Shown here in pieces: positions 15,729 through 56,434 of a stretch of DNA of 64,000 nt. Made by a program: the position numbers and the translations under genes. The DNA comes from Nitrososphaerota archaeon (GTDB taxonomy: Archaea; Thermoproteota; Nitrososphaeria_A; Caldarchaeales; Calditenuaceae), in contig JAWBQR010000002.1 of NCBI GenBank assembly GCA_038845265.1, positions 1 to 64,000 of the forward strand, read 5' to 3'. The notes under the pieces are model-generated. The model had not been told where the DNA came from and did no database searches. It saw only the letters and a list, made by a program, of their open reading frames with translations. Each line of letters opens with the position of its first letter. The first letter of the stretch is position 1.

Positions 15729-15771
15729 ATCTCGGCTCTCTGAATATTATTCAGGGTGGCTCGAACTGGCA

Positions 15772-17022: not shown

Positions 17023-17058
17023 TACTCTTAATAAAAATTAAAGACACCTTATTTTATC

Positions 17059-17484: not shown

Positions 17485-17544
17485 CTACTAAATGAATGAT
17501 TTATGACATATCTTTAAAAACAAGTACGTAAAATTCATGCCTAG

Positions 17545-18729: not shown

Positions 18730-18747
18730 AAAATATAAAAATCTTGA

Positions 18748-42100: not shown

Positions 42101-42332
42101 CGTTCATTCCTTTGAGGGTTTGGTATCTGAGTACGAGGTCTTTGTAGATTCGTCCTCGGGCGTGTCCTATGTGCATGTAGCCGTTTACTGTTGGTGGGCC
42201 TTCTAGGAATGCGTATGTTGGTCCGTTGGGGTTCATTTGGCGGAATCGTTCTGGTATTTTGTTTTCTTTCCAGAATTTTTCTACTTCTGTTTCTACGTGT
42301 TTGTGGTTGTATGTTGGTGGTAGGGCGTACAT
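39150..42332 (-). CDS. ileS: Isoleucine--tRNA ligase
   Basis: GPP..HIGH, WTTTPWTLP, DQTRGWFY, KMSKS. Confidence 0.98.
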   Translation of the reverse strand: MYALPPTYNHKHVETEVEKFWKENKIPERFRQMNPNGPTYAFLEGPPTVNGYMHIGHARGRIYKDLVLRYQTLKGMNVWRRAGWDCQGLPTEIEVEKRLMEQLGTQKLTKRDIEEKIGLEKFVEEANKLVDYYIEKWRKDSERLALWLDYDNAYETRKERYMEHVWHLLKKAYQEGDLTLSYKVVPVCPRCETPLSSHELAQGYEEIEDYSIYVKFKLADRDASLLVWTTTPWTLPANEAVAVHPDEEYLEVLIDGERLIVAAKLLEKVTTITGKNYQIVRRLSGDELVGLRYIHPLAEEVSIHGTHLEPAHTVLPAEFVSMEEGTGLVHIAPGHGPEDFELGRIYGLPVLCPINQSGYFTQEAGNLKDLYHKEASIIILDILRSKGLLFHEDRIIHSYPHCWRCGTPLIYLSSRQWFLKVDRIKKIMIEENSKVKWYPPWAGESRFGEWLQNAEDWCISRTKIWGTPLNVWTCEKCGAIKVVGSKEELLQADVKPPVIRLHRPWIDQFIFRCKECGGEMKREPFVLDTWLDSGVAHFASIDYLSDKKLFERLFPYDFITEAIDQTRGWFYTLLFTSALMFEKAPYKVVLNQGHVLDKEGKKMSKSRGNVIWASEAFERWGVDNLRLYILSKAQPWDSINFDPEEVRQVESTLNILWNVVSFAKTYFDLDRYDPEREGLEAMLPYAEPEDRWLVSRINSLIRYITGAIERFEFHEAARAILKFASEDLSRTYVRAVRRRFWAEERTFQKLASYAALYYVIIRYLIVLSIFAPYISEYLYQLLRSKSLPESVNFNKWPRPDDRLIDQELEDAMQIVEDIITASLNARQRGKRKLRWPVLRVIISPNTYRVKEACEKFRNYLMRQINCFSLEILEPSKIPVETVIKVEPVLSRLGPKAGKRLPLVIEALKNLKPREVSDTFESGKKYELVLPDKSVFELEEGDVVFTESLPEYLVMGEGKFGKVYIDLREDQRLRAVSISNELIRRIQVMRKELKLEITQEAQCMIYLDSPTVSDYIRQMTDYIEEETRTRLTFLREPPSPDMGYIKEWKINDNYAIICLAK

Positions 42333-42434
42333 TTTTTGCTATTTTTCTTTTTATGGTCTGCGTATTTTAGGGTTTTTTGTGGTTTAGGAGGTGGGTGCTA
42401 GAGGGTTAAATGTGGGGTTTGTTTGGTTTTGTTT

Positions 42435-43220
42435 ATGGTTGTTGTGGGGGTTATTGGGGGTTCTGGTGTTTATAGTGTTGATATGCTGAGCGGTGTGCGG
42501 CAGGAGAAGGTTTTTACGCCTTTTGGTGCTCCGAGCTCTTTGTTGACGGTGGGTGAGTTTGGTGGTCGTCGTGTTGTTTTTCTTCCTCGGCATGGTGTTG
42601 GGCATTCTGTTCCGCCTCATATGATTAATTATCGGGCGAATGTCTGGGCTCTTCGTGAGCTTGGGGTCGAGCGTGTCTTGGCGCCTAGTGCTGTTGGTAG
42701 TCTGAGGGACGAGTTTAGGCCGGGTGAGCTTGTATTGCCTGACCAGTTTATTGACCGGACTTGGGGTAGGCCTGGTACGTTTTATGATGGTGGCCGTGTG
42801 GCGCATATCTCGATGGCTGATCCATTTTGTCCTGAGTTGATGGATGTTGTTTATGACGTGGCTGTGGGTCTTGGATTACCTATTCATCGTGGTGGGACTT
42901 ATGTCTGTATTCAGGGGCCGAGGTTTTCGACGAGGGCTGAGTCAAAGATGTTCCGGATGTGGGGTGGCGACATTATTGGTATGACGCTTGTGCCTGAGGT
43001 GAATCTTGCGAGGGAGGCCGGGATGTGTTACTTGACTATCGCGATGGTTACGGATTATGACTGCTGGAAGGAGGGTTGGAGAGTGACTGCTGAGGAGGTT
43101 GTGAGGACGATGGCAAGTAATGTCGAGAAAGTGCAGAAGCTTTTAGCGAAGGTGATTCCGTCTATTCCTGAGAAGCGTGGGTGTAGGTGTGGTGAATACA
43201 TTAATGAGGCTCTTCTCTGA
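42435..43220 (+). CDS. mtnP: 5'-methylthioadenosine phosphorylase
   Basis: GVIGGSG, PRHG, NYRAN, GPRFSTRAES, GMT, VTDYD; ATG at 42435. Confidence 0.95.
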   Translation: MVVVGVIGGSGVYSVDMLSGVRQEKVFTPFGAPSSLLTVGEFGGRRVVFLPRHGVGHSVPPHMINYRANVWALRELGVERVLAPSAVGSLRDEFRPGELVLPDQFIDRTWGRPGTFYDGGRVAHISMADPFCPELMDVVYDVAVGLGLPIHRGGTYVCIQGPRFSTRAESKMFRMWGGDIIGMTLVPEVNLAREAGMCYLTIAMVTDYDCWKEGWRVTAEEVVRTMASNVEKVQKLLAKVIPSIPEKRGCRCGEYINEALL

Positions 43221-43638
43221 GGAGTGTTAAGAATCTGGGATTTTCTGCAAAATTGCTTAACAATCTGGGTTCTATTCTTTATGGATTCAGCTAGGTTTTC
43301 TGCCTTGTCTTTTATGTGGGTGGACTTTTCATAACTATGGTTTTTCTTATTCCTCACCGACATAATATTATTCCAAATTGATGAATATAATCTTGCTGAC
43401 ATAATTAATTATGTCTCAGACGATTTTTATCTGGTCTCATTGTATCTTTGAATGAAGCTAATCTATAGAGTCTTCAAAGAGTATTTATTATGTCTTTAGC
43501 TTTCTGCAAGTTGAGAGGCATAATAATCGATATAGCATATTGTTCCGAATGCCACTAACTAGCGCGTAATTAAACCATTTTTAGATATACTGAAAGTTTT
43601 TATATAATTATTGATTGAAAAAACTACTATTTACGGAA

Positions 43639-44601
43639 TCATCGTGTTACATGCGTTCCTGCTTTTCCATTTATGGCATCTATTAATTGGTTTAGGTCCG
43701 CTATTATGGCTTCTTCTCCACCATTCTCGATGAATCTTACTGCCGCTATTATTTTTGGCAACATGCTTCCTTCAGCGAAGTGTCCTTCTTTAATGTATTG
43801 CTTAAGCTCCTCGACGCGTATTTTTTCGATCTTCTTTTGATTTTGCTTCCCGAAGTTGAGGTATGCTGCATCTATATCTGTCAGAATAACAAATTTGTCA
43901 GCTCTAACCAGTGAGGCGAGCCTCTCGCCTGCTAGGTCCTTGTCTATTACAGCATCAACACCCTTTAGTCCTTCATCGGTCTCAATGACTGGTATGCCGC
44001 CGCCTCCACACGCCACTACTACAAATCCAGTCTCTACTAGTCTCTTTATTGCGTCTCCCTCAATTATCTCTTTCGGGTCGGGTGATGGAACGACTCTTCT
44101 CCATCCACCTCTCGCCTTATCTTCCTTAAACACGTATTCTGGATGCTCCTTTTTTATCTCCTCCATCTCTTCTTTAGCGTAGAATGGGCCGACTGGCTTC
44201 GTTGGGTTCTTGAATGCTGGGTCTTCGCGATCTACTAGAACTCTTGTAACTACGGATACTACGCCCTTATTTATTGCTCTCTTTCTAAACTCATTTCCCA
44301 ATGCTTGTTGGATCATGTATCCAATGAATCCTTGAGTCTCAGACCCACAGACGTCCATAGGGAAGGCCGGAATCTCATAGACCTTCTTACCTGCTTCGTG
44401 TCTAAGGATAGTCGCTCCTACTTGAGGACCGTTTCCATGCGTGATAACAATCTTGTAATTCTTCTCGACTAAGTCCGCTAATATTTTTGCGGTTTTCCTG
44501 ACATTTTCATACTGTTCTTCAAAGCTGCCATCTTGTCCCCGTCTAAGAAGAGCATTACCTCCTAAAGCTATAACTACGAGTTTTTCGGTCCCACTTCTCA
44601 T
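43639..44601 (-). CDS. arcC: Carbamate kinase
   Basis: ALGGNAL, THGNGPQVG, RRVVPSP, AVIDKD, GSMLPK. Confidence 0.97.
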   Translation of the reverse strand: MRSGTEKLVVIALGGNALLRRGQDGSFEEQYENVRKTAKILADLVEKNYKIVITHGNGPQVGATILRHEAGKKVYEIPAFPMDVCGSETQGFIGYMIQQALGNEFRKRAINKGVVSVVTRVLVDREDPAFKNPTKPVGPFYAKEEMEEIKKEHPEYVFKEDKARGGWRRVVPSPDPKEIIEGDAIKRLVETGFVVVACGGGGIPVIETDEGLKGVDAVIDKDLAGERLASLVRADKFVILTDIDAAYLNFGKQNQKKIEKIRVEELKQYIKEGHFAEGSMLPKIIAAVRFIENGGEEAIIADLNQLIDAINGKAGTHVTR

Positions 44602-44715
44602 ATTGTATTACTTAAAAGTGCTGAAATTTATAACTAATGATGTGGTTTAAGTGTTGTTTTTTACTACATTTATTAAAATTTATATTATACATCAGATCAA
44701 TTTAACCGAGGCTTC

Positions 44716-45768
44716 ATGAGTGTTCCATCTTATGTCGGATCTATGAAAGGTAAGGACTTCATTAATACAAATGACTTTACACAGGAGGAGATACATGCAA
44801 TAATTAAGGCTGCCATGGATTTGAGGGAGAAGTATTGGTCAAGAGTCCCGACGAACTATCTGCAAGGAAAAACACTATTTATGCTGTTCTACAATAGGTC
44901 TCTGAGGACTAGGAATTCTTTCGAGGCAGGGATGCATCAGCTTGGAGGACACGCTCACTTCCTCAGCCCACAGGATGTATATACTCCTACCCTTCCAGAA
45001 GACATGATACCTTATCAGACTGAAGCTATAGCAGATGTGGCCCGCGTCCTAAGCAGGTATGGAGACGCCATCGCTATTAGGATTTATGGCGATGCCGCTA
45101 AATGGGTCATAGGCAGGGGAAATAGAGTGATACAGGAGTTTGCTAAGTGGAGCACTATTCCTGTATTAAACATGGAGGATGACATCTACCATCCATTTCA
45201 AGCACTAGCAGACATGATGGCGATTATGCAGGTGGCTCCAAAGCCTAAGGGAAAGAAGTTCGTCGTATCCTATGCTTATTCAGGTGGGCTTAAACCACTT
45301 GCTGTCCCTCAGAGCTGCGTCTTAATAGGGACGCAGTTTGGAATGGACGTAGTGCTGGCACATCCTCCCGGATTTGAGTTAGAAGACCATGTCATAAAGG
45401 CTGCTAAAGAGAACGCCGACAGGTATGGCGGAAGCTTCACGGTAGTAAACGACATGAAGGAGGCTTTCAGGGATGCTGACTTTGTGTATCCAAAGGCATG
45501 GTCTCCGAAGAGGTTCTTCCCACCCTACAACTCCAAGGTGGATAAGGAAGGCGCCATGGAGTATCAGAACAGATTCAAGGACTGGATCTGTACCCAGGAA
45601 TTGATGGATTTAACGAATAAGGGTAAATACATGCATTGCGGGCCTGCTGACAGAGGCCAAGAGGTCGTTGACGAAGTAATAGATAATCCTAACTACTCTC
45701 TTTACTTTGAGCAGGCTGAGAATAGGCTGCACGTCCAGAAGGCCGTAATGAGCATGGTCATGGGGTAG
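44716..45768 (+). CDS. Carbamoyltransferase, non-canonical (YgeW/AOTCase-like)
   Basis: SLRT, HPFQ, SYAYSGGLKPLAVPQS loop, HCGP instead of HCLP, QAENR. Confidence 0.85.
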   Translation: MSVPSYVGSMKGKDFINTNDFTQEEIHAIIKAAMDLREKYWSRVPTNYLQGKTLFMLFYNRSLRTRNSFEAGMHQLGGHAHFLSPQDVYTPTLPEDMIPYQTEAIADVARVLSRYGDAIAIRIYGDAAKWVIGRGNRVIQEFAKWSTIPVLNMEDDIYHPFQALADMMAIMQVAPKPKGKKFVVSYAYSGGLKPLAVPQSCVLIGTQFGMDVVLAHPPGFELEDHVIKAAKENADRYGGSFTVVNDMKEAFRDADFVYPKAWSPKRFFPPYNSKVDKEGAMEYQNRFKDWICTQELMDLTNKGKYMHCGPADRGQEVVDEVIDNPNYSLYFEQAENRLHVQKAVMSMVMG

Positions 45769-45780
45769 AGAGGTTCGGAA

Positions 45781-46827
45781 TTGCCGAGAGTAGTTGTGCC
45801 ACCTGCTGCAAAATCGATACTTGACGCGATCGGAAACACGCCGCTGGTAAGGCTCAGCAGAATACCCAGCAGTGAGGGAATCAAGAGTAACATCTGGTGC
45901 AAGCTTGAGTACTTCAACCCAAGTGGGAGTCTTAAGGACAGACCATATCGAGAGATGATACTGAACGCGATCAAGAGAGGCGACCTAAAGCCGGGAATGG
46001 AGATAATCGAAGTATCGACAGGGAACGCGGGAATAGCATGCACATTCATCGGGACCCTACTCGGCTACAAGGTGACCATAGTCATGCCTGAGGGAATGAG
46101 TGAGGAGAGGAAAAAGCTTATCAGGGGTCTCGGCGGAGAAATAATATTCACGCCTGGAGCAGAGAGCGACGTAGACCTAAGCATAGAGAAGGCTAAGAAA
46201 CTCATAGAAGAGAACCCGGGAAAATACTGGATGCCTAATCAATACGACAACCCAGACAACATTGCGGCTCACTACAGGACCACCGGGCCAGAAATCTGGA
46301 GACAGCTTAAGGGAAAGGTAGATGCATTCGTAGCCACCCAGGGAACTGGGGGAACCATAAGTGGTGTTGGGAGATACTTAAAAAAGATGAGAAAAGGTGT
46401 CAAGATTTATGCAGGCGAGCCGACCGAGGCCCCGATGCTCGCTTATGGCAAGTGGGGCTCCCATAGAATCGAGGGCATAGGAGACGGATTCGTCCCTAAA
46501 AACCTAGACCTAAGCATACTCACTGGAGTAATATTGGTAAGGTCCGACGAGGCAATAGAGATGACGAAGAGGCTGATAAGAGAGGAAGGAATATTCTGCG
46601 GAATCTCCTCCGGAGCAAACGTCGTCATGGCAATAAAGCTCGCAAAGAAGCATCCAGAACTAAAAAACATCGTAGCAATGATCAATGATAATGGATATAG
46701 ATACTTCTCTACCGCGGTCTTCGGCGTCGAGAAGGAGATCAGCATACCTGAGCGCGAACACCCAATGGACGAATACACCCGAAAACAGCTCGAGATCCAT
46801 CAGCCCAGATGGGAGATAATCGAGTAG
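45781..46827 (+). CDS. Cysteine synthase-like PLP enzyme (fold type II)
   Basis: GNTPL, PSGSLKDR, EVSTGNAG, GTGGT, IEGIG. Confidence 0.9.
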   Translation: MPRVVVPPAAKSILDAIGNTPLVRLSRIPSSEGIKSNIWCKLEYFNPSGSLKDRPYREMILNAIKRGDLKPGMEIIEVSTGNAGIACTFIGTLLGYKVTIVMPEGMSEERKKLIRGLGGEIIFTPGAESDVDLSIEKAKKLIEENPGKYWMPNQYDNPDNIAAHYRTTGPEIWRQLKGKVDAFVATQGTGGTISGVGRYLKKMRKGVKIYAGEPTEAPMLAYGKWGSHRIEGIGDGFVPKNLDLSILTGVILVRSDEAIEMTKRLIREEGIFCGISSGANVVMAIKLAKKHPELKNIVAMINDNGYRYFSTAVFGVEKEISIPEREHPMDEYTRKQLEIHQPRWEIIE

Positions 46828-46870
46828 CAATCATTTTCAACGCTTAAGACAAACCCGAGGGTAATTATTT

Positions 46871-48124
46871 ATGAACAATGAATTTCTCGAGAGGCTTATC
46901 TGCTCTAAGTGCGGAAGGGAATACTCGCCAGAGTCAAATCCACTTATGTGCATCAACAAGGATAAAGGGAGACTGGACATCGTTTACAACTACTCTGCAG
47001 TTTCTCAGAGACTGACAAGGGACGAGCTTGGAAGGAGGGAGACCAGCGGTGTCTGGCGGTACTGGGAGCTCCTACCAGTCAGCAAGGAATACGCGGTATC
47101 CCTCGGCGAAGGCAATACACCACTCATCAAGGCGGAGAGACTCGCAGAGAAGCTCAGAACCAAGAAGCTATACCTAAAAGACGAGACAAGAAACCCCTCC
47201 TCCTCATTCAAGGACAGAGCCATGACCATAGGCGTGAGCAAGGCGGTCGAGATGAGGGCAGACACCGTGGTAACCGCGTCGAGCGGAAACGCAGCCGCAG
47301 CCCTCGCTGCCTACGCTGCGAGAAGTGGATTAAGATGCGTCGCATTTGTCCCCGAAGATGTTGCCGCCGGAAAAGTATCGCAGCTACTTCTTTACGGCGC
47401 AAGGGTCTTCAGGGTCAAGCAGGTCGAGGAGGGAGTGGACCCAACTGTCCAACTAATGATCCTTACTCACGAGAAGCTAAACTGGTATACTTGCCCAAGC
47501 TTCGGGCCATTCAATCCCTACCAAGTAGAGGGACCGAAGACGATGCTATACGAGATAGTCGAGCAGCTGGGCTGGAGAATACCAGACTTCATCTTCGTAC
47601 CAACAGGGTCAGGATGCCTAATCACGGGGCTATGGAAGGCATGCATGGACCTGAAGAATATTGGACTCATGGATGAGTATCCTAGGCTAGTCTTGGTTCA
47701 GCCGACTGGAAACATGCCTCTTGTCGATGCGCTTAAGCGAGGACTCTCCTTCTCAGAGATAAGGCCCACGCCATATCCACACTCAGTTGCTTCGGGTCTC
47801 CTCGACCCCTACCCATGGGACGGAGACCTAGCCCTCGAGGCTGTTAGGAAGACTGGTGGTGCAGGCGTAGCAGTATCTGACGAGGAGATAATGAATGCCG
47901 TCAAGATGCTCGCGGGACTCGAGGGAGTCTTCGCCGAGCCCTCAGGCGCAGCGGGGCTTGCAGCCCTATTAAGGCTGCTCGACGAGGGAGTAGTTTCACC
48001 TAGTGATGAATCAGTCGTCCTAGTGACTGGGTCGGGCTTGAAGGAGCCGGAGAAGATCGTAAGGCTGTATCCTGAGACCCCGCTGATTGAGCCTAGCCTT
48101 GAGGAGGTCCTTAAGCGTATATAG
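46871..48124 (+). CDS. Threonine synthase-like PLP enzyme
   Basis: GEGNTPL, NPSSSFKDR, ASSGNA, TGSGLK. Confidence 0.88.
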   Translation: MNNEFLERLICSKCGREYSPESNPLMCINKDKGRLDIVYNYSAVSQRLTRDELGRRETSGVWRYWELLPVSKEYAVSLGEGNTPLIKAERLAEKLRTKKLYLKDETRNPSSSFKDRAMTIGVSKAVEMRADTVVTASSGNAAAALAAYAARSGLRCVAFVPEDVAAGKVSQLLLYGARVFRVKQVEEGVDPTVQLMILTHEKLNWYTCPSFGPFNPYQVEGPKTMLYEIVEQLGWRIPDFIFVPTGSGCLITGLWKACMDLKNIGLMDEYPRLVLVQPTGNMPLVDALKRGLSFSEIRPTPYPHSVASGLLDPYPWDGDLALEAVRKTGGAGVAVSDEEIMNAVKMLAGLEGVFAEPSGAAGLAALLRLLDEGVVSPSDESVVLVTGSGLKEPEKIVRLYPETPLIEPSLEEVLKRI

Positions 48125-48829
48125 TTACCACTCGCTGTGGACGAGTTTGCTGAATAAGCCTACTTTGCTAATGTTTAGTCTCATTGCGAGGATAGTCTCA
48201 GCGAGCTTTACACCGGCCTTGACGGGGTCTATTACTGGCATATCCAATTTTTTTGAAAGCTTTTCATCATAACCGGCTAGGCCAGCGCATCCAAGTATCA
48301 AGACCTCTGCGCCCCTACTTCTTGCTCTCTCTCCTGCCTCCACTAAGGGCTTTAGAACTTCTTCTTCACTCATTCTGTCTACATCGACTACTGATAATTT
48401 CATAGATTCTATTGATGCGAGCCTCTTCTCCAATCCGTACCTAAAGACCATGTTTTCCATCAGTGGGATTGCCTTTTCTGAGACGGCTAGTATCGAGTAC
48501 TTCCAGCCAAGGGCTAATGCCATTAGTATTGAGCTCTCACCTATGCCCAGTACCGGTATGTCTAGAATCTCTCTCAATGCATACATTCCTGGGTCGTCGA
48601 AACATGCTATTACTACGGCGTCAATTTTTCCTAGGCTTGGACGTATGACCTCCCTGATAATATTGATGGTTGAGGTCGCTTCATCCATGAAGGACTCTAT
48701 TGCCTCTGGCCCAGATTCAGGATTCTTCACAATTACTTCAACATCCTTAGATGCTGCCTGTCTTGCACTTTTCTCTATCATATACGTCATGTGTCGCGAT
48801 GTGTTTGGATTTACTAACAAAATTTTCAT
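48125..48829 (-). CDS. Hydantoin/allantoin racemase (Asp/Glu racemase family)
   Basis: VNPNTS, IACFDDPG, ILGCAG, PVIDP. Confidence 0.9.
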   Translation of the reverse strand: MKILLVNPNTSRHMTYMIEKSARQAASKDVEVIVKNPESGPEAIESFMDEATSTINIIREVIRPSLGKIDAVVIACFDDPGMYALREILDIPVLGIGESSILMALALGWKYSILAVSEKAIPLMENMVFRYGLEKRLASIESMKLSVVDVDRMSEEEVLKPLVEAGERARSRGAEVLILGCAGLAGYDEKLSKKLDMPVIDPVKAGVKLAETILAMRLNISKVGLFSKLVHSEW

Positions 48830-48888
48830 ATAAAAAAATTTATATCTTAGGTAAATAAATCTTTTTCGAGAATAATCAATTATGGTGA

Positions 48889-50244
48889 ATGTCTATGTCT
48901 TTAACATACATAAAGAATGGTAATGTTATAACAAGGTACGGATTGATTAAGGGTGGAAGCATTCTTATTTCTGATGAGAGGATAGCGGCAATAGTCAAAG
49001 GCGAAATCCCAGTTCAGGCAGACATAGTCATAGACGCGGACTCAAAGCTAATCTTACCAGGAGCCATAGATGTGCATCCCCATATAGATGATCCAAACTT
49101 CTTTGAGGGCAGAGAAGATTTCGAGACTGGTACGAGATCTGCGATAGTGGGTGGAGTTACCTCAATGGTTGAAATGCCCACTTGGAATCCAGTCCTAGAA
49201 AAATCAGTCATAGAGAATAAGATTGATAGAGGGAAGAGAATGAGCTATATTGACTTTAAGCTTCATGCTGGAAATGTCCGAGAAATATTAGACGAATCTG
49301 TCGTTAATGAACTCGAGAAGCTTGGAGTAATGTCTTATAAGACATTCACCTGCGATCCATACCTCTGTACAGACTATGTGATTCATGAAAACTTTAGAAA
49401 GTATGCTGATAGTGGGATAATATTCATGTTTCATGCAGAGAATAATGAGATTTTGAATGGTGTTAAGAAGGAGTTTGATGATAAAAAGATGAAGTCAGCG
49501 CGCTATCATCACTTGACTAGGCCATCGATCGCCGAGGTAGAGGCTGTAAATAGGATTCTCTTATTGGCCGAAAAGACTAATGCACAGATATATTTCGTTC
49601 ATATTAGTCTAGGCGAGTCTGTAAGGCTGATTAATGAGGCCAAGACGAGGAATGTTAAGGTCAAACTAGAGACGTGCCCCCACTATCTCTACTTTACTGA
49701 TAAGGACATGGAGAGGCTAGGGCCATACCTCAAGGTGAACCCCCCGGTCAGGACCGAAGATGATAGGAAAGCATTGATCAACTATCTAAATGCCGGCGTA
49801 GTAGACATAATTGCTAGTGATCATTATCCCACCTTCAAAGATGAGAGAGAGCCAGGATGGGAAGATATGGATAGAGTGAGGTCGGGGCTTCCTGGAATAG
49901 GAACGCTTTATCAATCAATAATCAACCTAATGCTAAATAATATTCTTAAGCCTGAGGTAGTTGTTAAAGTCCTTTCTGAGAATCCTGCTGAGATATTTAA
50001 GATCTCTGACAGAAAGGGCGGAATAGCTGTTGGAAAGGACGCGGACCTAGTTATACTTGATCCTAAAAGAGAGGTTCGAGTTACTCCGGAGAAATTCTTA
50101 ATCCATAGTGGCTGGACTCCCCTTGATGGAAGAGTATTCAAAGGCTATATAGAGAAGGTCATACTTAGGGGAGAAGTCGTAGTAGAAGACTATGAAATCA
50201 AAGCGAGAAAACCTGCAAAATATATAGGGACAGCCTTGTCTTAG
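48889..50244 (+). CDS. Cyclic amidohydrolase (allantoinase/hydantoinase/dihydropyrimidinase family)
   Basis: PGAIDVHPH, HAEN, ETCPHYL, KVNPP, ASDH. Confidence 0.9.
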   Translation: MSMSLTYIKNGNVITRYGLIKGGSILISDERIAAIVKGEIPVQADIVIDADSKLILPGAIDVHPHIDDPNFFEGREDFETGTRSAIVGGVTSMVEMPTWNPVLEKSVIENKIDRGKRMSYIDFKLHAGNVREILDESVVNELEKLGVMSYKTFTCDPYLCTDYVIHENFRKYADSGIIFMFHAENNEILNGVKKEFDDKKMKSARYHHLTRPSIAEVEAVNRILLLAEKTNAQIYFVHISLGESVRLINEAKTRNVKVKLETCPHYLYFTDKDMERLGPYLKVNPPVRTEDDRKALINYLNAGVVDIIASDHYPTFKDEREPGWEDMDRVRSGLPGIGTLYQSIINLMLNNILKPEVVVKVLSENPAEIFKISDRKGGIAVGKDADLVILDPKREVRVTPEKFLIHSGWTPLDGRVFKGYIEKVILRGEVVVEDYEIKARKPAKYIGTALS

Positions 50245-51980
50245 GATACTTCGATACTATTCATGAATTCATCGACAGTTAAGATATCGCCCGGCATGCC
50301 ATACTCGCGTAGAGATTGCGACAAAAGTGTTACCTGAGTCGGTCTGACAAAGGTCTTTTTGAGTACCTCAGTATTGCTGAGCACCTCGTTTGTCGGGCCA
50401 TCTAGTAAGATCTTCCCCTCGGCCAATGCGATTGTCCTCCTAGCCCACCTAGCGACAATCCACATCTCATGAGTAATGATTATAATCGTATGTCCCATCT
50501 CGTTCAGCCTTTGTAGGAAGTTCATCACGTCTATGCTTTGAGGCGTGTCCTGACCTGTGGTCGGCTCATCAACGATAAGTACGTCGGGCTTCATGGCTAA
50601 AACCGATGCTACGGCAATCCTCTGCCTCATGCCCTTACTCATTAGGAATGGATGCTCGTCTAAGATGTCTTCCGGAACCCCAGTTATCTTTATACTTTCA
50701 CGGATCCTTTGCTCTATCTCTTCTTCCTTAACTAGTCCAAATGACAACAAGTTCCTTAGGCCGAACTCAAGCTCCTTTCTGATCGTATCATTAAAGATCT
50801 GATGGTCAGGGTTCTGGAACACGTATCCAACCTTGGATATTAGCCTCGGCGTCGGAGTTACCCTAGTATCCATGCCAAAAATCTTAACCGACCCAGACGT
50901 AGGTTTATAAATTCCAGCTATGAGCTTCGAGAGTGTCGTCTTCCCAGAACCATTTTGACCAATTAGCGCTATGAACTCTCCCTTCCTAATCTTAAGGTCT
51001 AATCCTCTCAGAGCAACTGTTCCATCTGGATAGACATAATGTAAATTATCAACTTCTACTGCAGTTTCATCTCCTAAATGAGCCGGAGGCATCCGAGTGT
51101 CCGTCCGCTTCTTATTAGGCATTATCCTTCTCTCACTGAATAATCTCGCTAAGGACTCTACTGCCTCCTCGAGGCTCAGCGTTATATTTCCAAGTAGGTT
51201 ACGCTTCTTTAGGTATCCCGAAATAGCGCAGACATCCGGCACCCTCACTCCATTCTCGATCAAGAAGTCAGGGTCTGAGAAGAACTTCTCAGTCGGAGCA
51301 TCTAGAAGGATCTCGCCATCCTTTAAAAGAATGAATCTATCCGCAATTCTAGCAAGCTCCTCCAAATGATGCTCAACGACAATAATTGTCTCTACGAGTC
51401 TCTGCCTCTTCATGGATGTGATAATTTCCATGATCTCGTCCTTTCCTATCGGATCGAGCATAGAGGTGGGCTCGTCAAGCACCATAACTTTCGGACTCAT
51501 AGCCAAGGTAGCGGCCAATGCAGTTCTCTGTTTTTGGCCCCCTGAGAGCTCGACAGGGTCCTTCATCCTGAATTCCGATAGGCGCGTCATCTCCAACGCC
51601 CATGAAACCTTGTCCCTCACCTCTTCAGGCCGGTATCCTAAGTTCTGAGGACCAAAAGCAACCTCTTCATCGACTCTCGAAAGAAGGAACTGAGTCTCAG
51701 GATCCTGGAAGGTCATGCCGACAAATGCGCAGAGCGCCGCCACCTCAGTCGACGCAGTATCTTGGCCTAGAACCCTGACTCTTCCCTTCATTGCGCCCCT
51801 TTGTGAATGAGGAATAAGACCATTAAACGTAGATACTAATGATGATTTTCCCGAATCATTAGGCCCGGTTATTACTACGAACTCCTCGGGATTTATCTTG
51901 AGATTTATTCCTTTTAGGACCCAGTCCTTAGAATACTCGTATCTCCACCATAAATCCTCAATCTCTATGACGGGCTCCAT
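50241..51980 (-). CDS. ECF transporter fused A-A' ATPase
   Basis: Two ABC domains: GPNDSGKS/LSGGQ/DEPT and GQNGSGKT/MSKG/DEPT; FQDP and FQNP Q-loops. Confidence 0.92.
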   Translation of the reverse strand: MEPVIEIEDLWWRYEYSKDWVLKGINLKINPEEFVVITGPNDSGKSSLVSTFNGLIPHSQRGAMKGRVRVLGQDTASTEVAALCAFVGMTFQDPETQFLLSRVDEEVAFGPQNLGYRPEEVRDKVSWALEMTRLSEFRMKDPVELSGGQKQRTALAATLAMSPKVMVLDEPTSMLDPIGKDEIMEIITSMKRQRLVETIIVVEHHLEELARIADRFILLKDGEILLDAPTEKFFSDPDFLIENGVRVPDVCAISGYLKKRNLLGNITLSLEEAVESLARLFSERRIMPNKKRTDTRMPPAHLGDETAVEVDNLHYVYPDGTVALRGLDLKIRKGEFIALIGQNGSGKTTLSKLIAGIYKPTSGSVKIFGMDTRVTPTPRLISKVGYVFQNPDHQIFNDTIRKELEFGLRNLLSFGLVKEEEIEQRIRESIKITGVPEDILDEHPFLMSKGMRQRIAVASVLAMKPDVLIVDEPTTGQDTPQSIDVMNFLQRLNEMGHTIIIITHEMWIVARWARRTIALAEGKILLDGPTNEVLSNTEVLKKTFVRPTQVTLLSQSLREYGMPGDILTVDEFMNSIEVS

Positions 51981-51997
51981 TCAGACACCTCTCCCCC

Positions 51998-52870
51998 CTA
52001 CATGAACGGATTTGCAACTAAGCCATAAAACCTGGCGACTAATAAGCCTATAAACGCCAATACGAGCGTGACTATTATCACAGTGTCCGAGCCAGAGTAT
52101 CTCCAATAATACTTACCAACGTAGCTTTCTTTAAGCATCGCCTTCTCCTCGAGCAACTTTATCTTGAGTGGAGCCTTAAACGCCCTAGACTCCATCGTAA
52201 CTCCAGCATCAATCGCCTTCTTTATAGTAATAGCCACGAGAGGTATTAAGTAGTATCCGAATACGAATGGTCTCCTCCAGAGTGGCTGGGACTTAATATC
52301 TAGGCCTCTTGCCTTTTGAGCATCTTGAATCGTATTGAAGTCCGAGTCAAACATCCCTATGAACCTGAACGCCATCGTGAGATAGGTCCTAGCTACGTAC
52401 GATATATTCATCTTCTCAAAGGCACTCATAAGGTCCGACGTCGTTGTTATCGAGAGCCACAACAGCATGGCACTGACCAGGGCAAACATTCTGACATAAA
52501 CCATGACGCCGAATCCAAGCGCCTGACTATAAACCTCGACGGGACCTATAGTGGCTATGACGGTCGGAGACGGACCTGCTACCGACCTCCCAAAAAAGAT
52601 CACCGAGACAAATATGAAGAGTGCCAGAGTCATGAGGACCTTAAAGTATTTCTCGACATGCATAAGAGTTGCTTTAAATATCTTCATCAAAATTATATTG
52701 AAGAAGCCGAATAATGCATTATAAATTGGATTATCAATTATTATTGGATAGGCATTAAAAAATAAGAGGATTAAGATCTTAGTGATAGGGCTCATCCTAT
52801 TGGCGATAGACCTTGCATCAACGTATGAAAAAAAGGTTCTATATCTAGTAGCTATCTGCTGAGCACTCAC
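51998..52870 (-). CDS. ECF transporter T component
   Basis: MAFRFI, AQKARG, MESRAF motifs. Confidence 0.9.
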   Translation of the reverse strand: MSAQQIATRYRTFFSYVDARSIANRMSPITKILILLFFNAYPIIIDNPIYNALFGFFNIILMKIFKATLMHVEKYFKVLMTLALFIFVSVIFFGRSVAGPSPTVIATIGPVEVYSQALGFGVMVYVRMFALVSAMLLWLSITTTSDLMSAFEKMNISYVARTYLTMAFRFIGMFDSDFNTIQDAQKARGLDIKSQPLWRRPFVFGYYLIPLVAITIKKAIDAGVTMESRAFKAPLKIKLLEEKAMLKESYVGKYYWRYSGSDTVIIVTLVLAFIGLLVARFYGLVANPFM

Positions 52871-52874
52871 CTGG

Positions 52875-53462
52875 TTACCACCAATCTGGGAATACGTAGA
52901 CCCGTGTCCTCTTGACGTATGGAGTAGCGATCTTCAGTATTAGACTCCCAAAGACTATCGCGGGCCAAGTGTTACCGATGAACCAGCCTGCCCAGAAGAG
53001 TGGCTGTGCCTCCCAGGTAAATAGTCCCCATAGTACAAAAGCAGTGGTTCCGAGAGTTGCACCAATTGCGTTCTGCAGGACACAACCTATCAATATCCAT
53101 GCGAGCCAGTCCTTCCTAGTCTTTAGCTCTGGGTTAAGCTTGAACCTTCTGAATACCCATGCCACGGTCCATGCTTGGAAGAAGTTTGCAGGGATCAGTG
53201 TGGCTGCTACATACATGGGGATTGCCTCCCCGATGGCGTCAGATATTATCGGGAAGAGAAACGCGACGATGACCCCCCACATACCGAACCATATTCCACC
53301 TATAGCCTGTAGAGCCATGGCGGGCCAGAACCCTGAGACGTAACCTCCTATCGGTAGCGACATACTACCATATGCACCAACGACAATGCAGATTCCGGTC
53401 CAAGCAGCTAAGATGCTGCCCATAGTCGCGGCCGTCCTTTTTGGACGATAAACCTCGGTCAT
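52875..53462 (-). CDS. Probable ECF substrate-specific (S) component
   Basis: ~6 TM, Trp/Gly-rich (FWPAMALQAIGGIWFG); ATG 53462 follows GAGGTGA; co-oriented with T and A-A'. Confidence 0.75.
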   Translation of the reverse strand: MTEVYRPKRTAATMGSILAAWTGICIVVGAYGSMSLPIGGYVSGFWPAMALQAIGGIWFGMWGVIVAFLFPIISDAIGEAIPMYVAATLIPANFFQAWTVAWVFRRFKLNPELKTRKDWLAWILIGCVLQNAIGATLGTTAFVLWGLFTWEAQPLFWAGWFIGNTWPAIVFGSLILKIATPYVKRTRVYVFPDWW

Positions 53463-53472
53463 GTCATTCACC

Positions 53473-53592
53473 TCATATCTTTCCATAGTAGATAAATATT
53501 AGTATTATGCCTACTATCAAGATAATCAGCGAGATCGCCAGCAATGCAGAATCGCTTAATCCAATTTTCTTTTTTTCTATTATTTTTTTCAT
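53473..53592 (-). CDS. 39-aa single-TM microprotein heading the ECF operon (not in ORF track)
   Basis: MKKIIEKKKIGLSDSALLAISLIILIVGIILIFIYYGKI*; GAGGCGA before ATG; TATA-like box ~53619-53629; stop codon overlaps the SD of the S gene. Confidence 0.7.
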   Translation of the reverse strand: MKKIIEKKKIGLSDSALLAISLIILIVGIILIFIYYGKI

Positions 53593-53687
53593 ATCGCCTC
53601 GAAAAATACAAGTTAGGGATATATATAAACATTATGTTAAAAAATTAATTAATTGTAGATAATTCTTCTCTCAATCTTTGTTAGTAT

Positions 53688-54725
53688 CTACCTGTATAGT
53701 TGTTCACTCATGGTGACTGCCATAACTGCTGATTTAACGTACAGGCCGTTCTCGGCTTGTTCATATATGACTGAGCGGGGGCCATCCATTACTTCGTCTG
53801 TCGCCTCCTGTCCGCGAAGAACTGGAAGCACATGAGTCACTATGCCTTTCTTATCCATTAGGTCCGTGAGTTCTTGGGTTAAGATCCAATTTTTGTATTG
53901 ATTGTGAATTTGTATCTCCTTCTCGACTCCGAATTTTGATGCTCCGACTTTTAGGAGTTCCCAGCTAGCCCAGCTTCTCGGGAAGACTACATGAGCTCCC
54001 TCAATTGCGGATTTGAGGTCTGTTGTTTCCTCAAAGGCTCCGCCACTTCTATCTGCATTTTCTTTTGCTATCTTGGCTATTTCAGGATCTATGTTAAATC
54101 CAGGTGGATGAGCTACTACGACATCCATTCCGAACCTCGTCATAATGAGCGCCTCTTCCTGTATGCTGCATAGTCCTCTGAGTTTTGAGGCATATCCCCA
54201 CATGATTACGTACTTCTTTCTCTTAATGTCTCCAAGTTTTTCACGTACGGTCATGAGGTCCTGCATGCCTTGAGTTGGATGAAATGAGCAGCAACCCATG
54301 TCAATTACTGGAATCTCTGCATGTTTTGCATATTCCATTACTGTTGCTCTTCCGAGACCATATTTATAATCTATCGCGTCGTCTAAACATCTGACACCCA
54401 TGCCATGTCCATATCTTTCATACATCTTAGCGACGTCTTTAACAGCCTCTCCGAAGCCGACTCTCAGCGTCGAGACATCTATATATGTTCCATGTCCTCC
54501 GAGCAAGCTTGCTCCAGACTCGAATGCCGCCCTAGTCCTAGTTGATGGCGCATAAAATATGGCGAAGAAGCTTTTTCCTTCAAGTAGTTTTGGAAGAGGT
54601 TCTCTTTTACGATATTTTTCTTTAAGTTCTTTTGCTAGTTTTAATGTCTCTTCTATCTCCTCTATACTCCAATCTTGAGTAGATATCAGGTCTCGGCCGT
54701 ATAAATTAACGCTTATGCTGACCAT
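53688..54725 (-). CDS. Second carbamoyltransferase, non-canonical
   Basis: STRT, FHPTQ, MWGYASKLRG loop, HVLP, QAENG. Confidence 0.85.
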   Translation of the reverse strand: MVSISVNLYGRDLISTQDWSIEEIEETLKLAKELKEKYRKREPLPKLLEGKSFFAIFYAPSTRTRAAFESGASLLGGHGTYIDVSTLRVGFGEAVKDVAKMYERYGHGMGVRCLDDAIDYKYGLGRATVMEYAKHAEIPVIDMGCCSFHPTQGMQDLMTVREKLGDIKRKKYVIMWGYASKLRGLCSIQEEALIMTRFGMDVVVAHPPGFNIDPEIAKIAKENADRSGGAFEETTDLKSAIEGAHVVFPRSWASWELLKVGASKFGVEKEIQIHNQYKNWILTQELTDLMDKKGIVTHVLPVLRGQEATDEVMDGPRSVIYEQAENGLYVKSAVMAVTMSEQLYR

Positions 54726-54750: not shown

Positions 54751-55536
54751 TTAAAGATTTCTAATGACAATATTTAGTTGTTTTTTCTTTATTCCGCTTG
54801 GTGGGTTATTGTTTGTTGTGGCGTCTATGAATTCTATTTCCGGCCTGATTGTTGTGAGCCATGAGAGAAGTTTTTGAGCATAGCTTAGTTTTTTCTTCTT
54901 TGCTTTTAGCCATTCTTGAGTTATGTTTTTTGATTTTTTTGAGCGTTGCCCTATTCTGCACGTTAGGCACATCCCAATTGTTATTATCTTTGTTGCTCCT
55001 AAGCCTGCTGCTATGAATACTGCTCTGTCACCGTCTGTGAATCCACCGAAGTTGTGGATGTGTCCCTTTGGCTCGGATTGGCATGTGGCTTCGATTCGCT
55101 CGTTGAAGAGCTTTCCTATATCGGCGACTTTTGGAATATTGTCGCCATGTGCATGGATGATTAGTACAGCCCCTCTGCTCCATGCATCGAGTAATTCTTC
55201 CATCTTACCGTCCATATCTGTCACTACTATGTCTGGAGTTAGTCCAGCCTCAAGTAGGGCTCCTGTGGCGCTGTCAGCAGAGAAAATGACATATTTATCT
55301 CTATGACCGAGCTCTAAGAGTTGTTTTGCCTCCTCGTCTATGGAATCCGATGCGCCTGCGACGACTACAGTGCCCCGACCCGAGACTAATCTCCTCAGTG
55401 ATGGTATAAGGCACGGCCTATCATTCATCTGGCTCGCAAGTATCGAGGATGCCTCGGAATCCTTCTCAACGCTATATCCGAAGTCTTCTACGATTATTCT
55501 GTACCACTCGTACCAGCCACTCGGCGTCTCAGCCAT
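54751..55536 (-). CDS. mptE: 6-hydroxymethyl-7,8-dihydropterin pyrophosphokinase
   Basis: VVTDMDG, HAHGDN, NFGGFTDGDRA, KKKKL. Confidence 0.9.
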   Translation of the reverse strand: MAETPSGWYEWYRIIVEDFGYSVEKDSEASSILASQMNDRPCLIPSLRRLVSGRGTVVVAGASDSIDEEAKQLLELGHRDKYVIFSADSATGALLEAGLTPDIVVTDMDGKMEELLDAWSRGAVLIIHAHGDNIPKVADIGKLFNERIEATCQSEPKGHIHNFGGFTDGDRAVFIAAGLGATKIITIGMCLTCRIGQRSKKSKNITQEWLKAKKKKLSYAQKLLSWLTTIRPEIEFIDATTNNNPPSGIKKKQLNIVIRNL

Positions 55537-56434
55537 GATTTTTCCTGATTTCTCCGAGCGTTGTTTTTAGTGTAGCGGCAAAGTCATGATTATGAATGCT
55601 CTCGATGCTTTTTACGACGATTTTTACCTCGGTGTTTGGGCTCAGGTTTGGGAAGCTCTCAGCGATTCTCTGGGCTATTATTCTGACTGCGTCCTCTACG
55701 AAGACGGGATTCCTAACCGCGTCTAGGACTAGATATGCCTCATCGGCGCGCTTCAGTAGCTCGTAGGTAGGCGCGCTTAGAGATGCTCTGACAATGTCGC
55801 CAAGGCCGATTAGGCAGGCCGACTCGTCACCGACGAGTTTCAGGTCTACGGAGGCATATGTCCGCTGCATATGAGTCGCGATTGGGGTGTCCCTCGGTGC
55901 CTGCTTTTCTTGGCTCCATATCTTTCTTATCATCTCCTGTGCGCATGGGCATGCAGTAATGCCTGAGACTGTTACGCCTATATGTCTGCGGGATGATATT
56001 GTGCCGTCTTTTCTCCAGCCGGTTGCTCCGGCCCTAATCTTGAATCTTTCCAGCGAGTCTTTCTTCGTAATTGGTGATTTCACTGTCCTGTAGAGGTCGG
56101 CCTTGAAGTTTCCTTCAGCCCAGTCTGAGTATTGATGCTTCTCCAGAAGCTTCTCAACTATGTATTTTGAGAGGTCTTCGAGCCTTGCTGTTTTCCATGC
56201 AGCGGTCGATAAAACTTCATAGATTGATTCGTAGCTTCTGCTTGCATGTATGCCACGTTGGTCCGCTGGTAGGTTAACGAAGACGCTGAAGACAGAGTTT
56301 TGCAATACATAGCCATCTAGCCTACCCACAACTCCGAGCGGTATCCTAACGTTTATCAATCCAACCCTGTTTATTCCCAGCCTTATTCTGGGACGCTCTG
56401 ACTGGACGTCCGGCAGATCAATAAACATATCCAT
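55529..56434 (-). CDS. mptA: GTP cyclohydrolase MptA/FolE2
   Basis: PDVQ, GIHASR, TACPCA, THMQR, FVEDAVR, ESIH. Confidence 0.92.
   Translation of the reverse strand: MDMFIDLPDVQSERPRIRLGINRVGLINVRIPLGVVGRLDGYVLQNSVFSVFVNLPADQRGIHASRSYESIYEVLSTAAWKTARLEDLSKYIVEKLLEKHQYSDWAEGNFKADLYRTVKSPITKKDSLERFKIRAGATGWRKDGTISSRRHIGVTVSGITACPCAQEMIRKIWSQEKQAPRDTPIATHMQRTYASVDLKLVGDESACLIGLGDIVRASLSAPTYELLKRADEAYLVLDAVRNPVFVEDAVRIIAQRIAESFPNLSPNTEVKIVVKSIESIHNHDFAATLKTTLGEIRKNHG

Follow-up and report, generated by a model that had tools for sequence, protein, structure and literature searches.

We describe an island of ten genes at positions 43639–54725 of a 64,000-nucleotide stretch of archaeal DNA (the window; contig JAWBQR010000002.1 of assembly GCA_038845265.1, from a Nitrososphaerota archaeon of the Caldarchaeales) that, on balance, appears to be a catabolic module for substrate-level phosphorylation that covers the lower half of the reductive urate (2,8-dioxopurine) route of purine degradation in an archaeal form. 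Its ten open reading frames (ORFs) follow each other with near-zero spacing. Assigned to families with Pfam and NCBIfam profiles at their curated cut-offs, they encode a carbamate kinase (CK), two carbamoyltransferases (CTases; CT1 and CT2), two pyridoxal phosphate (PLP) enzymes of fold type II (CysK-like and ThrC-like), a racemase, a hydantoinase-like cyclic amidohydrolase (Amh) and the components of an energy-coupling factor (ECF) importer (Table 1). A preliminary description, made from the letters of the window, had named these ten contiguous genes and had proposed that a hydantoin or ureide is imported, racemised, opened and relieved of its carbamoyl groups by phosphorolysis. All ten ORFs were recovered with the families given there, and the interpretation as a whole is supported by the analysis below.

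Carbamate kinases make ATP from carbamoyl phosphate, and transcarbamylase reactions are reversible. In the bacterial pathway, as outlined in sections of Li et al (2025, PMC12507026) for E. coli and C. difficile, XdhD reduces urate and either YgfK or the PydA homolog UacX carries out the dearomatisation. SsnA then opens the ring to yield ureidomethyl-hydantoin and HyuA produces 2,3-diureidopropionate, from which YgeW with phosphate, or the hydrolase UacY, takes off one ureido group and YgeY the other, leaving 2,3-diaminopropionate for conversion to pyruvate by YgeX. Phosphorolysis is stated there, for YgeW, to be the unfavourable direction. According to passages of a preprint (Liu et al, 10.1101/2025.04.24.650524), YgeW and the kinase YqeA together gain ATP from 2,3-diureidopropionate, with the cut placed at the 3-ureido group; part of a commentary (PMC12990295) treats both the stereochemistry and the question of which ureido group goes first as open. 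The archaeal genes are similar to this pathway in that they combine a hydantoinase-type amidohydrolase, a YgeW-related CTase, a CK (45% identical to E. coli YqeA) and, at the end, a PLP enzyme of fold type II.

Four genes of the carbamoyltransferase family are present in the genome, namely CT1, CT2, an argF and a pyrB. The ORF at C5:53191–54081 (contig and positions) is a canonical ornithine carbamoyltransferase (OTCase, ArgF), because all motifs of this enzyme are present (STRTR, HPCQ, DVFVSMG and HCMP), whereas the ORF at C2:125474–126391 has the pattern of an aspartate carbamoyltransferase (ATCase, PyrB) and adjoins a dihydroorotase-like gene. As canonical ArgF and PyrB thus sit elsewhere in the genome, CT1 and CT2 are extra copies. 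They are about 40–41% identical to each other, and each has the SxRT, HPxQ and HxLP motifs by which, according to parts of the review by Shi et al (PMC4581275), the Asp/Orn transcarbamylase superfamily is recognised: CT1 contains SLRT, HPFQ and HCGP, the last with Leu replaced by Gly, together with the loop YAYSGGLKPLAVPQ, and CT2 contains STRT, HPTQ and HVLP. The motifs quoted in the preliminary description (SLRT, HCGP and the loop for CT1, STRT and HVLP for CT2) could all be located in the translations. Both proteins fall below every NCBIfam cut-off that would give them a known function: N-acetylornithine carbamoyltransferase (AOTCase; NF003384, cut-off 288 bits; CT1 281.1, CT2 205), OTCase (TIGR00658, cut-off 280.85; CT1 228.6, CT2 207.7), putrescine carbamoyltransferase (PTCase; TIGR04384, cut-off 500; CT1 213, CT2 182.8), YgeW (TIGR03316, cut-off 500; CT1 163.9, CT2 139.9; also NF005538) and ATCase. 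Among solved structures, the best relative of CT1 is AOTCase 3m5c (211 bits), followed by the Pyrococcus OTCase (205 bits); for CT2 the Pyrococcus OTCase 1pvv ranks first (168 bits) and AOTCase next (157 bits).

Loops were compared in an alignment of 28 CT1 and 17 CT2 sequences that also contained YgeW, ArgI and PyrB of E. coli as well as ArgF and PyrB from the window genome. At the DxxxSMG site of OTCases, where ArgF and ArgI carry D(V)(F/W)VSMG, CT1 reads YPKAWSP and CT2 FPRSWAS, so that neither has the OTCase signature; the pattern (Y/F)P(K/R)xW at this position is common to CT1, CT2 and YgeW. All three also have a long 120s loop, which together with a proline-rich loop is described in sections of the same review (PMC4581275) as a mark of knotted transcarbamylases. 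The earlier suggestion that the CT1 loop resembles that of YgeW is borne out by the alignment, in which E. coli K-12 YgeW ...YSPSYGKPLSVPQ stands opposite CT1 ...YAYSGGL-KPLAVPQ, that is, ...SYGKPLSVPQ opposite ...GGL-KPLAVPQ, with two prolines in CT1 and the common pattern KPL(A/S)VPQ. CT2 has a loop of equal length at this place, with no prolines. Judged by its sequence class, CT1 would be a knotted-type transcarbamylase of the AOTCase/YgeW kind. Its 80s loop is nine residues longer and AOTCase-like, and it keeps the equivalents of AOTCase E144 and K252, while W77 is changed to Tyr; the two CTases diverge in the 80s and proline loops and at the positions equivalent to E144 and K252. CT1 thus has much in common with the Xanthomonas AOTCase, its best solved relative and best NCBIfam model, including long 80s and 120s loops, but it differs in HCGP instead of HCLP, in the exchange at W77, in its score below the cut-off and in its context, which consists of catabolic purine genes and carbamate kinase instead of arginine synthesis, with a canonical ArgF present elsewhere.

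A careful IQ-TREE run (52 rows, 358 columns) recovered CT1 (support 98/92), CT2 (100/100) and the ArgF/ArgI group (97/89) as separate groups and joined CT1, CT2 and E. coli YgeW in one clade (99/96) apart from ArgF/ArgI. Within this clade CT2 is sister to YgeW (93/82), a position to be read with the warning that YgeW forms a long branch. CT1 and CT2 are therefore neither ArgF nor PyrB but kin to YgeW, which is their nearest relative among the references used. With a separate ArgF, missed cut-offs, the lack of DxxxSMG and the YgeW clade, they are not the ordinary OTCases that the preliminary description had named as the outcome that would overturn it, and the public records in which relatives of CT1 are called ornithine or N-acetylornithine carbamoyltransferase are probably wrong. 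The distance to YgeW is nevertheless considerable: identity is 34% for CT1 and 29% for CT2, and the 120s and 240s inserts and the C-terminal extension of YgeW are absent from both. The pseudo-ATCases of Rubrobacter and Nocardioides belong to the ATCase branch, as stated in parts of the review (PMC4581275), whereas CT1 and CT2 lie on the YgeW side, away from PyrB.

The link to purine catabolism comes from the neighbourhoods of CT1 in other archaea. Relatives of CT1 were scanned for in one genome per species, and the best 80 of 211 stretches (55–92% identity) were kept as loci; they stem from Caldarchaeales, Nitrososphaerales, Bathyarchaeia, Hadarchaeota, Desulfurococcales, a Korarchaeia-like genome and others. 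These loci were compared in two ways, by tblastn with the window proteins and by clustering of their own ORFs (single linkage, at least 42% identity and at least 70% cover), each cluster being named with Pfam and NCBIfam from one representative. By tblastn, CT2, CK and the CysK-like and ThrC-like enzymes recur widely, the racemase and a close amidohydrolase were found only in the 92%-identical relative L001, and the S and T components of the ECF importer only in L001 and in a Bathyarchaeia locus (L074). In the clustered ORFs, CT1 is accompanied by a ThrC-like gene in 43 of the 80 loci, by CT2 in 41, by a CysK-like gene in 37 and by CK in 34; when only the 50 loci of at least 15 kb are counted, CT2 and ThrC are each present in 34, CK in 29 and CysK in 28. 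The further neighbours, which go beyond the evidence of the preliminary description, include the FAD, 2Fe-2S and Mo subunits of xanthine dehydrogenase (XDH; 29, 27 and 25 loci, respectively), SsnA-like genes (20 loci; best model SsnA, with 373 bits against a cut-off of 444), adenine deaminase (16), PydA/PreA-like genes with 4Fe-4S, termed UacX-like here (9), and HyuA-like and GuaD-like genes (6 each). A gene for the XDH Mo subunit, an SsnA-like or a UacX-like protein occurs in 35 of the 80 loci, and at least one purine marker in 49.

Gene order differs between lineages. Caldarchaeales loci typically have CT1-CysK-(V4R)-ThrC-CK with CT2 on the opposite strand, followed by the XDH subunits and the SsnA-like gene, and Desulfurococcales carry CT2-CT1-CK-SsnA-like-UacX-like-ThrC on one strand. 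From these comparisons, CT1-CysK-ThrC-CK-CT2 emerges as the conserved unit, with a purine-catabolic link in other archaea, and the racemase, amidohydrolase and ECF genes are lineage-specific additions to it. Co-localisation in related genomes, on which the preliminary description had staked its proposal, accordingly holds for this core and not for the racemase or for the ECF S and T genes. As in the bacterial pathway, the core adjoins XDH, SsnA-like and PydA/UacX-like genes; unlike it, the archaeal loci have two CTases in place of one, are without a YgeY-type hydrolase in 92 of 94 cases (a YgeY counterpart was found in 2) and hold CysK- and ThrC-family enzymes where YgeX would be expected, a counterpart of E. 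coli YgeX being found in 0 of the 94. The M20 gene of the window genome (C2:74156–75289) scores as ArgE/DapE type. One contig filed as a Methylomirabilota bacterium (L041) carries archaeal-type GuaD-like, CT2, CK and CT1 genes, the last 75% identical, which could reflect mis-binning or transfer.

We also counted the families in 401 genomes of the phylum, with thresholds of E≤1e-100 for CT1, 1e-88 for CT2 and 1e-90 for the CysK-like enzyme. CT1 is present in 42 genomes and CT2 in 39, all of which have CT1 (39 of the 42 CT1 genomes); the raw count for CT2 was 40, from which one genome (G351) was removed as its match was a CT1 gene matching across families. In several complete genomes CT1 and CT2 lie tens to hundreds of kilobases apart and co-occur nonetheless. 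The CysK-like subfamily was found in 25 genomes, 24 of them with CT1. The near-obligate co-occurrence is an argument for joint action of CT1 and CT2, and the near-confinement of the CysK-like enzyme to CT1 genomes argues that, although it passes the model, it is not a housekeeping cysteine synthase.

The same counts bear on the idea that the two CTases act in parallel on different ureides, for example one purine-derived and the other pyrimidine-derived, such as N-carbamoyl-beta-alanine or carbamoyl-aspartate, or else citrulline or carbamoylputrescine, and share one carbamate kinase. An identity of only about 40% and the divergence already noted in two loops and at the equivalents of E144 and K252 would suit such a division of labour. 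UacX-like proteins are homologous to PydA/PreA, and dihydropyrimidines too are opened by members of the amidohydrolase family; passages of the review by Shi et al (PMC4581275) contain speculation on a catabolic beta-alanine transcarbamylase, and the genome has a gene of the agmatine deiminase family. Independent pathways would however be expected to assort more freely than CT1 and CT2 do, and the PTCase model is far from being reached by either. The agmatine-deiminase-family gene, for its part, lies outside the window on the same contig (C2, ~100899–102785), ~46 kb from the island, and overlaps the start of a CN-hydrolase gene, a pair that represents the hydrolytic putrescine route, while the arginine deiminase family (PF02274) has 0 matches in the whole genome, which is 93.3% complete. 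We regard parallel, unconnected CTases as clearly unlikely. For the island itself an arginine or agmatine deiminase pathway was rejected on these grounds: such pathways resemble it in that a ureido compound and phosphate give carbamoyl phosphate and, via carbamate kinase, ATP, but an arginine deiminase is missing from the genome, the agmatine deiminase has a CN-hydrolase of its own as partner, and neither CT1 nor CT2 reaches the cut-off of the OTCase or the PTCase model. The earlier statement that neither deiminase is present therefore stands genome-wide for arginine deiminase and has to be restricted to the window for agmatine deiminase.

Whereas the core is tied to purine genes elsewhere, the upper part of the reductive pathway was not found in the window genome. 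PF02738 (XDH) has no match in this genome (93% complete) or in the genome that holds L001; the best scores for SsnA are 166 and 165 bits, respectively, against a cut-off of 444; and in each of the two genomes a single DHO_dh match lies above the Pfam cut-off, which is taken as PyrD and leaves no candidate reductase. The window genome thus has the HyuA-type amidohydrolase, CTase and CK of a reductive urate cluster and lacks XdhD, YgfK/UacX and SsnA. Since the upper pathway was not found and the core is joined here to a racemase, an amidohydrolase and an ECF importer, all in one island, we read it as a lower-half module fed by import. The only SsnA/GuaD-family amidohydrolase of the genome (C6:77304–79744) has as its neighbour an ABC binding protein of the Bmp family (nucleoside type); the models that fit the amidohydrolase best, chlorohydrolase or deoxyadenosine deaminase, all stay below their cut-offs.

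Of the three lineage-specific functions, the racemase has as solved relatives 3qvj, a 'putative hydantoin racemase' (125 bits), and 5lfd, an 'allantoin racemase' (117 bits), whereas the Pyrococcus hydantoin racemase 2eq5 reaches only 61 bits. In the alignment, VIACFDDPG and LGCAGLA of the island racemase match the Cys-containing stretches of 3qvj and 5lfd, and we take the two aligned cysteines to be the catalytic pair. Amh is nearest to the L-hydantoinase 1gkr (223 bits) and the D-hydantoinase 1nfg (200 bits), with allantoinase at 168 bits. The only subfamily model whose cut-off it reaches is TIGR00857, and it is 27% identical to E. coli HyuA. The HxH, Lys, His, His and Asp positions align with those of 1gkr; presumably these are the metal ligands of cyclic amidohydrolases, the Lys being carboxylated. 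A locus search with Amh alone returned the near relative only. Among the 401 genomes, the nearest Amh homolog (about 40–41% identical, in a genome of the same order, G399) lies between the orthologs of CT1 and CT2, in a locus (L116) that also holds a UacX-like gene (52% identical to the Desulfurococcales type), an SsnA/GuaD-like gene and a ThrC ortholog. At ~11850–19230 of this locus (G399:C1:37100–57000), two genes of the aldehyde:ferredoxin oxidoreductase family, each preceded by a 4Fe-4S gene, are interleaved with the UacX-like and SsnA/GuaD-like genes beside CT1-Amh-CT2, and two MoeA genes are nearby; an enzyme of this type may replace xanthine dehydrogenase there.

For the putative S component of the importer no Pfam match was obtained, and a histidine-kinase NCBIfam match (23 bits against a cut-off of 1200) was dismissed as noise; its assignment draws on its place in the cluster and on ESM Atlas features, whose label, 'putative ECF transporter S component', is a generic one. 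In L074 a similar ECF module (S 66%, T 44%, A 55% identical) abuts CT2-CK-CT1, with the S gene next to CT2. Two further ECF modules occur in the window genome (C3:78741–81870 and C4:34507–36841), and the S component of one of them is 25% identical to that of the island.

A racemase, an L-/D-hydantoinase-like enzyme and a transporter side by side also call to mind general utilisation of hydantoins and N-carbamoyl amino acids (the 'hydantoinase process'); the CTases would then take the role of the N-carbamoylase, and the amino acids set free would go to the PLP enzymes. The island is similar to hyu systems in having a racemase with both Cys stretches and a hydantoinase-like enzyme beside a transporter, and the Pfam and NCBIfam scans of its proteins detected no N-carbamoylase. 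Phosphorolytic CTases and a kinase stand in the place of that enzyme, and the transporter is of the ECF type; to our knowledge, hyu permeases usually belong to another family. We consider this account highly unlikely, for the racemase and the ECF genes are outside the conserved unit, the core is tied to XDH, SsnA-like, UacX-like and adenine deaminase genes, and mono-ureido substrates hardly explain two CTases.

The two PLP enzymes belong to the core. The CysK-like gene always lies directly after CT1, and its product has cysteine synthases as best solved relatives (~270 bits). The ThrC-like enzyme, whose best solved relative is the threonine synthase 2zsj (216 bits), belongs to a set of five ThrC paralogs in the genome, and two of the others score higher on TIGR00260. 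The four others are located at C4:69219–70400, C10:35340–36551, C6:96837–98171 and C11:16772–17884; a stretch near the N-terminus is rich in Cys in all five, every one of which passes one or other of the curated 'threonine synthase' models, and presumably most of them act otherwise than as threonine synthase. We infer that the island's ThrC-like enzyme is a candidate stand-in for the 2,3-diaminopropionate ammonia-lyase YgeX and that the amino acid left after de-carbamoylation may undergo beta-elimination or beta-replacement by the CysK-like enzyme.

Taken as a lower-half module, the island would work as follows. The ECF importer (S, T and A-A') would take up a 5-substituted hydantoin-type ureide, most likely 5-ureidomethyl-hydantoin or the related 5-ureido-dihydrouracil, shed by neighbouring purine degraders; these compounds are favoured because the C3 logic and the PLP enzymes fit them. 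The racemase would interconvert the C5 enantiomers of the imported hydantoin, and Amh, as the analogue of HyuA, would open the ring to give 2,3-diureidopropionate. CT1 and CT2 would then phosphorolyse one ureido group each, and CK would turn the resulting two carbamoyl phosphates into two ATP, probably the yield per substrate before the costs of transport; ECF import consumes ATP. Finally, the ThrC-like enzyme, the CysK-like enzyme or both would remove 2,3-diaminopropionate, either to pyruvate and ammonia or by beta-replacement, and this removal would pull the unfavourable phosphorolysis forward. Substrate, reaction direction, order of the CTases, ATP yield, the roles of the PLP enzymes and pyruvate as the carbon product are all inferred from gene content and family membership. 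As to which CTase would act on which ureido group, the clues are split: YgeW groups with CT2 in the tree and has its loop motif in common with CT1.

Not all of the evidence points to the reductive pathway, and several of the observations in this and the following two paragraphs count against it. An allantoin racemase is among the nearest solved relatives of the island racemase, which is closer to it and to 3qvj than to 2eq5. Furthermore, in L074 (positions 9097–18270) after the ECF genes and CT2-CK-CT1 come glycerate kinase-like, enolase, GlcD/F/E-like, lipoate ligase and GcvH genes, a set that hints at glyoxylate or glycine as end-product in that lineage and whose glycerate kinase-like, enolase and glycolate oxidase-like members would fit a route from allantoate to glyoxylate. 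Both observations agree with a scheme in which allantoin (5-ureidohydantoin) is imported and racemised, Amh forms allantoate (diureidoacetate), and the CTases release two carbamoyl phosphates together with glyoxylate and ammonia, the PLP enzymes being peripheral. The substrate must in any case come from outside because the genome is without the reductive upper pathway, and 2,3-diureidopropionate is said to recall allantoic acid in its structure, according to one passage of the commentary (PMC12990295). There is also a bacterial precedent, the ureidoglycine carbamoyltransferase route of Rubrobacter, for which parts of Barba et al (2013, PMC4016543) report a carbamoyltransferase ('pseudo-ATCase') with carbamate kinase and allantoinase. 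For Nocardioides they describe two neighbouring carbamoyltransferase genes of unassigned function, one for a pseudo-ATCase and one for a YgeW homolog, beside xdhABC and hyuA. These systems and the island are alike in that a CTase and carbamate kinase harvest, or would harvest, ATP from a purine-derived di-ureido acid (PMC4016543); they differ in being bacterial and, for Rubrobacter, in being tied to the oxidative route with uricase. Several points speak for the reductive pathway nonetheless. Amh is nearer to hydantoinases than to allantoinases, its nearest homolog sits with UacX-like and SsnA/GuaD-like genes, the SsnA-like and UacX-like neighbours of the core elsewhere mark the reductive and not the oxidative route, and the CysK-like and ThrC-like enzymes, part of the conserved and co-inherited core, have no obvious role on a C2 product. 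Allantoin as the substrate is therefore unlikely, though it is the alternative with most in its favour. Genes related to those of L074 for glycerate kinase-like, GlcD-like and enolase proteins are present in the window genome, which is neither for nor against it.

A second group of observations concerns ordinary biosynthesis. CT1 misses the AOTCase cut-off by only 7 bits. The CysK-like and ThrC-like enzymes pass curated cysteine synthase and threonine synthase models, their nearest solved relatives are ordinary enzymes of these kinds, and the CysK-like gene is the genome's best cysK candidate; because of the models passed and the ordinary relatives, biosynthetic roles of the two are conceivable. 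Taken to its conclusion, this would make the island a chance cluster of housekeeping genes, with an OTCase or AOTCase (as in the public names of CT1 relatives), a cysteine synthase, a threonine synthase and an anabolic carbamate kinase. We give this very little credence. Canonical ArgF and PyrB are encoded elsewhere, CT1 and CT2 are without DxxxSMG, the subfamilies of CT1, CT2 and the CysK-like enzyme occur in just 42, 39 and 25 of the 401 genomes, four further ThrC paralogs are available, and the neighbours in other archaea are catabolic purine genes.

The remaining observations concern the reach of the comparisons. Five of the 50 loci of at least 15 kb (L022, L049, L067, L079 and L080) have none of the neighbours counted above. 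The fullest locus, L034, combines HyuA-like, adenine deaminase, GuaD-like, CT2, CT1, CK, SsnA-like, UacX-like, CysK and ThrC genes with a YgeY-like M20 gene (34% identity, 199 bits), so that both CTases stand alongside the hydrolase. The suggestion of the preliminary description that the second CTase could take over the step of YgeY is weakened by this locus and does not hold universally. The rows of the tree include neither AOTCase nor N-succinylornithine carbamoyltransferase, PTCase or ureidoglycine carbamoyltransferase, and the placement of CT1 and CT2 relative to these comes from profile scores and comparison with solved structures. In addition, the co-occurrence counts overstate independence because the compared genomes are kin, and the upper pathway could be unassembled because the genome is 93% complete.

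Table 1. Genes of the island, with positions in the window and the profile evidence for each family.
Feature	Position	Strand	Support
Carbamate kinase (CK)	43639–44601	-	TIGR00746 arcC, 431.8 bits (cut-off 358)
CT1 carbamoyltransferase	44716–45768	+	PF02729 and PF00185
CysK-like PLP enzyme (fold type II)	45781–46827	+	PF00291; TIGR01139, 365.5 bits (cut-off 351)
ThrC-like PLP enzyme, Cys-rich N-terminus	46871–48124	+	PF00291; NF006050, 338.5 bits (cut-off 303)
Asp/Glu/hydantoin-family racemase	48125–48829	-	PF01177, 185 bits
Cyclic amidohydrolase (Amh), hydantoinase-like	48889–50244	+	PF01979
Fused ECF ATPase A-A'	50241–51980	-	TIGR04520, 452.6 bits; TIGR04521, 450.7 bits
ECF T component	51998–52870	-	PF02361, 67.6 bits
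Putative ECF S component, 203-aa membrane protein	52875–53486	-	Position in cluster; ESM Atlas feature score 0.97
CT2 carbamoyltransferase	53688–54725	-	PF02729 and PF00185

Judged from the coordinates, the island likely comprises five transcription units, which are CK, CT1-CysK-ThrC (with gaps of 12 and 43 bp), the racemase, the amidohydrolase and CT2-EcfS-EcfT-EcfA. It is flanked by housekeeping genes for IleRS, methylthioadenosine (MTA) phosphorylase, MptE, MptA, AspRS and IlvD. MTA phosphorylase (42423–43220; NF006334, 385 bits against a cut-off of 382) adjoins CK, and a 43% identical relative of it lies beside CT1 in the Korarchaeia-like locus (L077), an adjacency that is perhaps due to chance. 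Immediately upstream of CT2, and on its strand, lie MptE and MptA (54751–56434), two pterin biosynthesis genes that are typical of archaea; 25 bp separate MptE from CT2, and transcripts may read through into the island.

The source assembly comprises 1.37 Mb in 34 contigs and is 93.3% complete. A public protein 98% identical to CT1 is filed under Nezhaarchaeales, and near-identical island DNA is present in hot-spring metagenome runs from several studies. Metatranscriptome contigs with at least 95% identity, from two libraries of one study, lie on CT1, CysK, racemase, amidohydrolase, ECF and CT2 genes. These contigs are compatible with transcription and a weak hint of it, no proof, since carry-over of DNA is possible, and contig depth cannot rank the genes; in the same two libraries no RNA contigs matched the flank at 42000–43500, and uncovered stretches prove nothing.

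A genome of the same genus (G339) gave 0 matches to CT1, CT2, the CysK-like enzyme and the amidohydrolase. We rejected the conclusion that it lacks the island, as the island site coincides with an assembly gap: one of its contigs (C3, L144) ends inside an 81%-identical CK homolog just past the MTA phosphorylase gene and another (C58, L143) starts at MptE, and because the contigs break exactly at both island edges, absence is not established. Between the MTA phosphorylase and CK genes this genome has ~1 kb of extra sequence with two small ORFs, which may reflect strain heterogeneity.

It was not until 2025 that the reductive urate pathway was elucidated, and in gut bacteria only. In the main texts of Li et al (PMC12507026), of the preprint (10.1101/2025.04.24.650524) and of the commentary (PMC12990295) the word 'archaea' is absent, as far as these texts were available, although supplementary gene-cluster tables of the first two may list clusters from archaea or with two CTases; the titles and abstract beginnings listed in literature searches likewise do not describe an archaeal form of the pathway or a scheme with two CTases. 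The chemistry and most of the families are already known from bacteria, whereas it is new that two CTases are used, that YgeY and YgeX are substituted, that the range extends to archaea and that a truncated form is fed by an importer. CT1 and CT2 represent two new transcarbamylase subfamilies. If they are position-specific, they and the racemase would be good tools for the question of cleavage order and stereochemistry that part of the commentary raises (PMC12990295).

In its widest form, which we hold as possible rather than probable, the proposal is that many anaerobic and thermophilic archaea run an undescribed fermentation of purines or ureides with two dedicated YgeW-related CTases for the two ureido groups of 2,3-diureidopropionate, two ATP in place of the bacterial one and terminal enzymes recruited from the ThrC and CysK families, and that in the hot-spring archaeon of the window the module, uncoupled from purine oxidation, is supplied through a new ECF importer and a racemase, so that the organism would live in part on intermediates leaking from neighbours. 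The lineages concerned would be Caldarchaeales, Desulfurococcales, Bathyarchaeia, Hadarchaeota, non-ammonia-oxidising Nitrososphaerales and Nezhaarchaeales. If this is true, a relative of the gut bacterial pathway would be widespread among the uncultured archaea that inhabit hot springs, sediments and soils and would supply them with ATP and pyruvate from nucleic-acid debris. A second CTase in place of the hydrolase would be the more energy-efficient design, and the truncated, importer-fed form suggests cross-feeding on pathway intermediates released by other organisms.

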